Positions 14,273 to 15,466 are shown, counted from the stretch's first letter. The stretch: 64,000 bases of DNA from an uncultured Planctomycetia bacterium (GCA_964650515.1 CAZYUB010000009.1:25093-89092), one strand, 5' to 3'. Notes: generated from the sequence alone by a model not told the origin. A program made the numbers and translations.

Positions 14273-15466
14273 ATGCGGGAGCATAAACTATTGGCCTTTA
14301 CCTCATTGCTATCGGCCGCCATCCTATGCCTGGGTGCGACGCAGGCGGACATTATAGTGCTCAAGGACGGGGGAGAGAAGATAGGCGGCAGGATCATCGA
14401 GGAGAGCGATACCCATATAACCGTAAAACTTAAGTCCGGCGGCAAGAGCACCTTCCCGAAGGCGTGGATCAAGGACATTAAGAAAGCGGAAGTGCCGGAG
14501 GGGGAGCTTTACACAAAACAGGATGTATACCTGTCGAAACTCAAGACGCTTGACCCAAAGGATGCCGAGGCGCAGATGCATATAGCGAAATGGTGCTTCG
14601 ATAACGCCACCGAGGATAACGGGCTTTTTGAGATGGCCGACAGGCACTATAAGGCGGCAAGGGATATCGACCCCAAATACGCCGAAAAGGTCGGAAAGGA
14701 GCTTGCCGCGGCGCAGGAGAAAGAGGCGGGCAAACTCTTTTCCGTCGCTGAGACCGAATATAAATGGGGCGAGTATTTCAAGGCCGAACAGATGGCGGTA
14801 TCGGTGATCTCGCTGTATCCGGATACCTCTTTTGCGGGAAAGGCCAGGGGGCTTATAAATAAGATCTGGGGCAATGCCAGGGCGCCCAAGATATTCGATA
14901 ACCCGCAGAACCTTCCTGAAATCGTATTCACGGTCGAAGAGATGCAATCCGTGCTTTCGCATATGGGCACGGAAGAGCGCAAGCAGGCGTATTTCATGAA
15001 GTGCCTTGACCGCGGCATAGATTATGAAGAGAGGGCGGAGGAGGTCGATAAGGACAAGAGGGGCGGGTATTATATGGCGGCGATAGCGTGCTATGACATA
15101 GTCTCCGGTTCAGCCTCCGGCCCGGTAAAGAAATCCGCCGACTTCAAGATGCAGGGGGCATTAAGGAAATATTTTGACAGCAAACCGGAGCCGTTCAGCG
15201 ATGCCCGTTACGCGCTGATGGCCGGTTATATACTTAAGATACAGGACCCGCCTTATATAGAAAAGCTTACTGCCCAGTATTCCAAACTTGGCGACGAGTT
15301 GCTGAAGAAAGCGAAGAGGATGAAACAGCCGGAGAAAGCCGAAAAGGCCAAAACCGCGTATTTCTGTTTCTCGATAGTGAACAATTATTCAAAAGACGAA
15401 ATGATAAAGCAAGATGCCTTCGAAAAAATGATCGAATGCCAGCGCTTGGAGAGAGCACGCAAGTAG
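14273..15466 (+). CDS. Secreted ~400 aa partner protein A (small N-terminal beta domain + helical TPR-like body; conserved C-terminus …MIECQRLERARK)
   Basis: Signal peptide MREHKLLAFTSLLSAAILCLGATQA. No family recognised. Paralog at 18217-19425 in the same position after a giant GspK-like gene. Confidence 0.55.
   Translation: MREHKLLAFTSLLSAAILCLGATQADIIVLKDGGEKIGGRIIEESDTHITVKLKSGGKSTFPKAWIKDIKKAEVPEGELYTKQDVYLSKLKTLDPKDAEAQMHIAKWCFDNATEDNGLFEMADRHYKAARDIDPKYAEKVGKELAAAQEKEAGKLFSVAETEYKWGEYFKAEQMAVSVISLYPDTSFAGKARGLINKIWGNARAPKIFDNPQNLPEIVFTVEEMQSVLSHMGTEERKQAYFMKCLDRGIDYEERAEEVDKDKRGGYYMAAIACYDIVSGSASGPVKKSADFKMQGALRKYFDSKPEPFSDARYALMAGYILKIQDPPYIEKLTAQYSKLGDELLKKAKRMKQPEKAEKAKTAYFCFSIVNNYSKDEMIKQDAFEKMIECQRLERARK

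Follow-up and report, generated by a model that had tools for sequence, protein, structure and literature searches.

A candidate partner protein family coupled to giant GspK-like pseudopilins in type II secretion/type IV pilus-like gene clusters of Omnitrophota

In phages Mu (Sv-U and Sv'-U') and P2 (H-G), the tail-fiber tip and its assembly chaperone are exchanged as a block. At the tips of bacterial pili, the large minor pilins TcpB and CofB serve as docking sites for the exported proteins TcpF and CofJ, in cognate pairs that are species-specific (PMC9565799, PMC6048534), and the periplasmic accessory protein TfcP stabilizes the PilY1.1 of one Myxococcus tip set (PMC8833165). The uncultured nanobacteria of the Omnitrophota are suspected of a predatory or parasitic lifestyle, and their loci that resemble the type II secretion system (T2SS) or type IV pili (T4P) have been linked to prey contact (bioRxiv 10.1101/2023.11.21.568195). 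Here, we analyzed a stretch of 64,000 nucleotides from an uncultured bacterium (GCA_964650515.1, CAZYUB010000009.1:25093-89092; hereafter the window), the first 26 kb of which form a single plus-strand T2SS/T4P-like cluster that encodes three giant GspK-like pseudopilins (giants 1 to 3, giants 2 and 3 being also called K2 and K3). The genes for K2 and K3 are each followed by one for an exported protein of about 400 amino acids (aa), A and its paralog A', which an original prediction made from the sequence alone had described as strictly paired with the giants. We compared this cluster with related loci (numbered L001 onwards), and found that A-type genes are genetically coupled to giants and that the variable head of a giant and the body of its partner have been exchanged together (coordinates of all features are collected in Table 1).

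In every locus for which upstream sequence was available, the A-type gene lies 3-23 nucleotides (nt) downstream of a giant of the K2/K3 type (730-880 aa) and ahead of pilMN. This adjacency was observed in the window (twice), in L001-L005, L007-L011 and L014-L017, on the partial contigs L012 and L018, at the distant locus L020 and on two further contigs, and the number of A genes equals that of K2/K3-type giants at each locus. A single pair is present in L004, L005, L007, L009-L011, L015, L017 and L020, while two tandem pairs with a repeat period of ~3.9 kb are found in the window, L001-L003, L016 and L008 (L014 being the same contig as L008); the giant and A have been duplicated as a unit. Distant variants occupy the same position: P0037 (E 5e-20 to the profile) directly follows a 751-aa giant, P0024, which has no barrel domain, sits after an 859-aa giant, and P0027 comes after a 734-aa giant at a locus with a different secretin architecture. 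The strict pairing that had been predicted was thus recovered wherever it could be seen, and the genetic coupling of A to giant GspK-like pseudopilins is well supported. At the first junction of the window (TAGGAGAAGAGATG), the stop codon of giant 2 is located 8 nt ahead of the A start and overlaps its ribosome-binding site (RBS). The start of A' is most likely ATG 18229, as judged from the RBS GAGGTG upstream of it, the 8-nt gap from the giant 3 stop that matches the one between K2 and A, and the homolog P0015, which starts with MSK. Both junctions would be close enough to permit translational coupling.

The comparison with L001 revealed where the second pair of the window differs. The amino acid identity of the machine proteins is high (PilMN 97%, the tetratricopeptide repeat (TPR)-N0 protein 99%, Secretin 1 98% and PolA 95%; cluster proteins including PilO and both secretins 93-99%), and so is that of the first pair (K2 94%, A 93%). 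In the second pair, the N-terminal half of K3 is 91% identical, the K3 head 35%, the A' body 39% and the A' tail 67%. Along K3, identity amounts to 85-98% up to about residue 400 and 18-62% past about residue 480; along A', it stays at 22-50% up to about residue 360 and then reaches 62-100% in the last ~40 aa. At the DNA level, homology ends at 16982 within K3 and returns at 19263 within A'. Taken together, the DNA and protein identity profiles therefore delimit the differing block as the head of giant 3 plus A' minus its last ~40 residues. The proportion of synonymous differences (pS) is 0.73-0.77 in the K3 head and A' vs. 0.43-0.50 in the flanks, and this raised synonymous divergence indicates that the cassette alleles are old and were moved by recombination rather than locally accelerated. 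Giant 1 and the beta-helix protein encoded behind it constitute a third pair of giant and partner (7911-11766), hypervariable like giant 3 and A', with identities to L001 of 61% and 53% between flanking genes at 93-99%.

In 105 pairwise comparisons among 15 pairs, the identity of the A body tracked that of the K head (Spearman 0.90; partial r 0.94-0.97 when controlling for PilMN and the K N-terminal half, all values being descriptive only), and the identity of the K N-terminal half tracked the genome backbone (0.81; 105 comparisons). All three giants carry the motif (D/N)S(V/L)KLG(Y/F/V)WD(N/D)FD(D/E)D, kept in DNA and protein (9496-9536, 13039-13079 and 16914-16954), whose position is the exact switch from the constant N-terminal half to the variable head; it may represent a domain hinge and/or a recombination boundary. 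The joint exchange of head and partner is new relative to the original prediction and constitutes the most interesting aspect of the locus.

Clustering resolved at least 10 A body types that are at most ~50% identical to each other and share one 47-residue tail with the consensus KQPEKGEKA..AYF.FSI.N.FSKDEKIKQ.AFENM[IV]ECQRLERARK. In the window, A and A' are 43% identical (376 residues aligned, E 2e-118) and both terminate in IECQRLERARK, as originally noted. Since a promoter lies just downstream and the paralogs are nearly identical at synonymous sites, a constraint at the DNA level was considered as the sole cause of this invariant peptide; it was rejected given that synonymous changes in L005, L010 and L011 leave the peptide intact, and the constraint on the tail therefore acts on the protein. 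The 3' ends of A and A' together with ~60 nt beyond them, through the -35 box (15272-15476 vs. 19231-19435), share 74% DNA identity, and the last 40 coding nt are nearly identical, synonymous sites included, in proteins that are only 43% identical as a whole. These near-identical ends suggest either a shared regulatory element upstream of both promoters or gene conversion between the two copies, which is likely to have occurred within the lineage of the window.

Both proteins carry an N-terminal signal, as had been predicted: the Sec-type leaders, read directly from the sequence with an oblique stroke at the cleavage site, are MREHK-LLAFTSLLSAAILCLGATQA/D in A and ...AIRFAHA/DD in A', and the family alignment places A-x-A/D or an equivalent directly ahead of the first strand, with no lipobox conserved across the A family. 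The ratio of nonsynonymous to synonymous substitution rates (dN/dS) of A vs. its orthologs is 0.06-0.15, hence the gene is functional and under purifying selection. An AlphaFold2 (AF2) model of A built on 16 family members (predicted local distance difference test, pLDDT, 85; predicted template-modeling score, pTM, 0.69) has a signal helix at residues 3-19, five strands at 24-73 and 17 helices at 76-394, in agreement with the small beta-rich domain and long helical TPR-like body of the original prediction; the barrel domain modeled by itself reached a pLDDT of 78.5. The conserved cysteine noted at the time (CF.N) corresponds to the nearly invariant C108 in WCF(D/N)N; two further cysteines, C244 and C273, are invariant, and the one in the tail (C389) is mostly kept. 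A has all the features that define its family, namely a signal peptide, the TPR region, a helical C-terminal domain with the motifs KC..D..R and CY, the KQPEK...ECQRLER tail, and a slot between a giant GspK-like gene and pilMN.

No Pfam family was recovered for A or A' at E ≤ 1, TPR families (TPR_1/2/8/16 etc.) included, and the C-terminal halves of both proteins as well as all three giant heads gave zero Pfam matches even at E ≤ 10. The barrel of A matched NF047433 (Lepto_7_Nterm, the N-terminal domain of LA_0442/LA_0875) with 28.3 bits (E 1e-6, positions 8-58 of a 63-position model) and that of A' with 21.1 bits; homology to this domain is likely, though both proteins score below the cut-off of 43 bits. 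The same model was matched by 65 of 71 more distant proteins that share the module (best E-value 4.5e-20). When the whole chain of A was compared with the PDB using Foldseek, only generic helical repeats were retrieved (OGT TPR, 14-3-3, BamD; template-modeling (TM) scores 0.13-0.29), and the fold is TPR-like by these matches only. For the barrel alone, Hfq was found at TM 0.70-0.75, and the best specific neighbor was the 'nose' domain of Kustd1711 (28% identity, root-mean-square deviation 2.0 Å, TMq 0.75), a domain of an anammox cytochrome (PDB 7zs0) that its authors described as Hfq-like and of unknown role (PMC11791136). Sequence searches of the PDB with A and with K2 returned nothing useful. 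The original statement that no family could be recognized thus remains valid for the whole protein and its C-terminal domain, which have neither a Pfam match nor a specific structural neighbor, and was refined for the N-terminus, where a Sm/Hfq-like barrel related to NF047433 is followed by ~130 residues of BamD/YbgF-like TPR.

Several more specific assignments were tried and rejected. The PTPDL family (NF041881) reached 30.9 bits vs. a cut-off of 200 and covered only profile positions 2-77 of 339, i.e., the shared barrel. For a BamD/YbgF-type TPR protein, TIGR02795 gave 16.7 bits vs. a cut-off of 90.1, BamD was retrieved by Foldseek at TM 0.13-0.16, and the resemblance is limited to aa ~147-192. 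The secretin pilotins PilF/PilW/Tgl (TIGR02521, NF033762) gave no match to A at E ≤ 1, a lipobox is not conserved, and A is hypervariable between identical machines. The class II TPR chaperones of the type III secretion system (LcrH/SycD, TIGR02552) are cytoplasmic proteins of ~160 aa; neither A nor A' matched them, and A has a signal peptide and 397 aa. PilY1/PilC tip adhesins were discarded because A has no corresponding Pfam or NCBIfam match and its model is all-helical past residue 76. By profile comparison, A proved unrelated to the TPR-N0 protein encoded in its cluster.

A profile search over 1.84 billion representative proteins yielded 763 matches at E ≤ 1e-3, of which 150 were listed and used for domain counts. 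The great majority of the 150 listed matches combine barrel and TPR, while the family-specific C-terminal domain is present in ~35 of them; at every examined locus of these C-domain carriers, the gene occupies the slot after a giant. In the other listed matches, barrel and TPR precede TPR arrays, HtrA proteases, esterases/polyhydroxybutyrate (PHB) depolymerases, phospholipase D (PLD), peptidase-MA/DUF1570, DnaJ-type zinc fingers, HEAT repeats or a beta-helix, and a module found on so many unrelated proteins is best described as a promiscuous leader of exported proteins. One such fusion, of the Rosetta-stone type, comes from L006 (10001-11437), where P0028 joins an A-type barrel and TPR to a right-handed beta-helix (P0026 and P0029 were also noted as such fusions); it directly follows the PA14-type giant, the only giant of this locus, and precedes pilMN, with no separate A gene in L006. 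P0028 thus ties the N-terminal module of A to the slot behind a giant independently of the A-specific domain. Two Peptidase_MA_2 genes are located just downstream of the secretins in L006 (18508-20155), and DUF1570/Peptidase_MA_2 is also among the C-terminal domains fused to barrel and TPR elsewhere. The C-terminal two thirds of A define a new, narrow family, with close members in only 6 species genomes of 185,579 searched; the loci found with the close family alignment were 6 in genome contigs and 6 in metagenome contigs, and represent few independent lineages. Named homologs and related contigs are labeled Candidatus Omnitrophota, the only group from which A is known so far. In the published literature, no description of the A family was found ('PTPDL' returned chemistry papers only), and the papers on T2SS-like loci of Omnitrophota name GspD/E/F and pilins near giant genes without mentioning the A family or giant GspK-like pairs. 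The A family is real, and has neither a curated model nor a published description.

What A does can be approached from the division of the giants into two parts. The constant, pilin-like/GspK half at the N-terminus would plug into the shared G-I-J pseudopilus and carry a variable head of ~350-400 aa, while A, an exported non-pilin, would fit the head of its own giant through its variable body (Sm-like barrel, TPR and family-specific helical domain). The roles suggested in the original prediction fit the genetics, and we propose, with chances that we judge to be even, that A acts as a periplasmic chaperone, an adaptor or a tip co-factor that is dedicated to the upstream giant and matched to its variable head. 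A would bind the head in the periplasm with the variable body as contact surface, and the constant 47-residue tail could act as a handle contacting the constant part of the giant or the machine. As a chaperone or adaptor, A might hold the large beta-rich head folded or masked until the I-J-K tip is assembled; as a tip co-factor, it might travel out and be displayed together with the head. A further and more tentative proposition, possible in our opinion and rather doubtful, is that head and A body form a swappable specificity module at the tip of a T2SS/T4P-like filament, exchanged between Omnitrophota strains and duplicated to alter the recognition of prey, host or substrate. Several observations speak against a role of A as dedicated partner of the head. 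The loci all belong to a single clade with synteny across the whole cluster, polA and glgA flanks included, so that adjacency by itself demonstrates membership of an operon and not a specific partnership, and one recombination tract can make adjacent segments co-vary even if they do not interact. The pairwise comparisons lack phylogenetic independence, as L016 repeats L001 and L009 repeats L005. In addition, Foldseek gave A no structural likeness to any known chaperone (all matches generic, TM < 0.3), the barrel and TPR module is fused to many unrelated enzymes elsewhere and is hence not pilus-specific, and some family members that follow a giant, such as P0024, have no barrel.

As the main alternative, A, A' and the beta-helix protein could be exoprotein cargo of the T2SS-like machine that crosses the outer membrane and acts on prey, host or substrate, with a variation that stems from an arms race and co-varies with the head only through adjacency. 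The genes for T2SS substrates commonly adjoin those of the machine, and these proteins would suit such a part with their Sec signal peptide, their conserved cysteines and the lack of a membrane anchor; the neighboring partner has the pectate-lyase-like beta-helix that is a classic fold of T2SS cargo, and barrel and TPR are found on typical exported enzymes (esterases/PHB depolymerases, PLD, HtrA and peptidase-MA). We nevertheless consider cargo unlikely, as A has no recognizable enzymatic or binding domain, and the strict 1:1 count with giants, the tight gene spacing and the paired duplication are unexpected of free cargo. Moreover, in independent allele types the exchanged tract runs precisely from the boundary between the constant and variable parts of the giant to the constant tail of A, a recurrence that indicates a selected module.

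A variable domain sharply bounded at a conserved motif, and downstream of it a gene that varies along with it, is also what polymorphic toxin/immunity cassettes look like, and A, periplasmic by prediction, might be an immunity-like neutralizer that masks a lytic or toxic effector head in the periplasm of the producer, in keeping with the proposal that Omnitrophota are predators or parasites (bioRxiv 10.1101/2023.11.21.568195). This is improbable given that the giant heads match no toxin or enzyme family, that the variable part of the giant is internal with the last ~100 aa conserved again, and that A, with 400 aa and a constant tail, is unlike the typical small immunity proteins; its mechanism also overlaps with that of a chaperone, as both need to bind the head. 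The TPR-like fold, the conserved tail and the position as last gene ahead of the pilMN promoter could further point to a constant part of the machine with a role in structure or assembly (pilotin-like, or an alignment TPR protein) that is not giant-specific. We give this slightly less credit still, since A is hypervariable between near-identical machines, has been duplicated along with the giant, has no conserved lipobox and no match to PilW/Tgl/PilF, and since a separate TPR-N0 protein that is unrelated to A already adjoins the secretins.

If the cassettes of head and A set tip specificity, they would be host-range markers readable from metagenomes, and would also show that pseudopilus tips can be built from modular, swappable parts plus their own helper, an arrangement undescribed for T2SS or for T4P minor pilins. 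Were the cassette to act as a specificity module, A would be the founding member of a new class of dedicated chaperones for pilin heads, or of tip co-factors, in which docking falls to a constant tail and client binding to a variable body. In practical terms, the analysis adds a new family of proteins whose domain boundaries are clear, whose binding partner can be tested and whose conserved tail lends itself to pull-down.

The cluster starts with two GspE ATPases, GspF, a GspG-like major pseudopilin and I-like and J-like minor pseudopilins, continues with giant 1 (PA14) and the beta-helix protein, giant 2 and A, and giant 3 and A', and ends with a PilM-PilN fusion, a PilO-like protein, a 223-aa protein, the TPR-N0 protein, two short secretins, a 107-aa protein, polA and glgA. 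The giants appear to be GspK-like at the domain level with ~500 residues extra: PF03934 scored 24.3 bits for K2 and 22.7 for K3 (cut-off 24.2), NF037980 scored 48-56 bits (cut-off 130), and the N-termini read KG/VALIITVG in the sequence, with no Glu at +5. According to the junction sequence, the start of the beta-helix gene was revised and is probably ATG 10876, 4 nt past the giant 1 stop. For giant 3, the most likely start is ATG 15620 and not 15530, given a strong promoter-like site whose -10 box extends to 15527, the ATG at which the open reading frame (ORF) opens being thus only 3 nt past the -10 box of a near-consensus promoter; from ATG 15620, the protein begins with MNKRRKKGVALIIT..., in agreement with the N-termini of giants 1 and 2. 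The resulting leader of ~90 nt (15530-15620) contains a 7-bp hairpin (AATGCCC-TCGT-GGGCATT) that is found also in L001, and gave no Rfam match and a folding z-score of -0.5. The promoter-like sites after A and A' are the two best in 19 kb, with 11/12 positions each, and the one ahead of pilMN (TTGACA...TAtAGAAT) is kept in L004, L005, L007, L010 and L013; with a sigma-70-like site after each A gene, A closes the pseudopilin transcription unit.

Other parts of the window were also recorded. The secretin is apparently split (22541-25895) into a 372-aa TPR protein with weak STN/N0 matches and tandem secretins of 371 and 373 aa, and at the distant locus L020 (8493-10613) one 706-aa protein unites TPR, STN and secretin domains. 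Orthologs of the 254-aa protein in the PilO position (21103-21867) match PF28028 (Amuc_1100) in other loci, which links the cluster to the pilus-like locus Amuc_1098-1102 of Akkermansia. Over positions 1-64000, nearly all long ORFs with recognizable products are on the plus strand and the GC skew is positive throughout, which is consistent with a single replichore and a strong gene-strand bias.

Table 1. Positions of the pseudopilin and partner genes, the parts of protein A, the exchanged block and the promoter-like sites, counted from the first nucleotide of the window
Feature	Coordinates	Strand	Evidence and remarks
Giant GspK-like pseudopilin 1, PA14 domain, 986 aa	7911..10871	+	PF07691 PA14 3.4e-8; NF037980 7e-13
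Exported right-handed beta-helix protein, partner of giant 1	10876..11766	+	PF13229 4.8e-10
Giant GspK-like pseudopilin 2 (K2), 831 aa, upstream partner of A	11769..14264	+	PF03934 T2SSK 4.1e-5; NF037980 GspK 5e-15, below cut-off
A, 397-aa exported partner protein	14273..15466	+	ORF; 14 close homologs; AF2 pLDDT 85; dN/dS 0.06-0.15
Sec-type signal peptide of A, aa 1-25, predicted cleavage TQA/D	14273..14347	+	Read from sequence
Five-strand Sm/Hfq-like beta-barrel of A, aa 26-75	14348..14497	+	Strands between residues 24 and 73
BamD/YbgF-like TPR region of A, aa 76-205	14498..14887	+	All helices; weak TIGR02795 YbgF matches; BamD/YbgF matches in relatives
Family-specific helical domain of A, variable, aa 206-350	14888..15322	+	No Pfam match at E ≤ 10
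Constant 47-aa tail of A, KQPEK...MIECQRLERARK, and stop codon	15323..15466	+	Common to at least 10 body types
Sigma-70-like promoter after A, TTGACA-17-TATACT	15499..15527	+	Conserved in L001 and L008
Giant GspK-like pseudopilin 3 (K3), 866 aa from ATG 15620	15620..18220	+	Pfam and NCBIfam matches; ORF opens 15530
Exchangeable cassette, giant 3 head plus A' minus tail	16982..19263	+	No blastn alignment to L001 here; flanks align at 88-92%
A', paralog of A, 398 aa from ATG 18229	18229..19425	+	ORF opens GTG 18217 (402 aa)
Sigma-70-like promoter after A', upstream of pilMN, TTGACA-17-TAGAAT	19460..19488	+	

A is a member of none of the pilus-tip and phage families with which it was compared, as each membership feature tested was absent from it, and the likenesses lie in arrangement. 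In the tip complex of type IVa pili, PilY1/PilC is, like A, a non-pilin that carries a Sec signal and whose gene comes immediately behind that of the GspK-equivalent minor pilin, with one partner per minor-pilin set, several alternative sets per genome and a proposed role at the tip (PMC7541494). Unlike A, which has 400 aa and is all-helical behind a small barrel, PilY1 has ~1000 aa or more and a C-terminal beta-propeller, and the two are unrelated in sequence and fold; in the giants, it is the pilin that contains the large adhesin-like domain. TfcP resembles the role proposed for A in being a small periplasmic factor encoded in one tip set and needed for the stability of a large tip protein (PMC8833165), but it is a non-canonical cytochrome c that acts via calcium binding, whereas A has no heme motif, and cassette exchange is not described for TfcP. 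The pairs TcpF/TcpB and CofJ/CofB of type IVb pili are comparable to the proposal made here in that the tip carries a minor pilin of unusual size, to whose C-terminal domain an exported protein from its own operon docks (PMC9565799, PMC6048534, PMC10120004). Their docking signal is a short flexible N-terminal peptide, whereas the constant element of A is the C-terminal 47 aa and its N-terminus is a folded barrel that is absent in some members; the tcp and cof genes are non-adjacent, unlike the giant-A pairs, and there is no homology. The NF047433 domain and the Kustd1711 nose share the five-strand Sm/Hfq-like fold with the barrel of A, but are single domains of unknown function on unrelated proteins and uninformative on its C-terminal two thirds. 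The giant-A cassette belongs to a cellular pseudopilus and not to a fiber, has no sequence relation to phage tail-fiber cassettes and, being exchanged by homologous recombination between strains, has no invertase or inverted repeats. In architecture, these phage cassettes of tip and chaperone are nonetheless the closest of all, with a constant N-terminus followed by a variable, receptor-binding C-terminus and a downstream helper that are swapped together.

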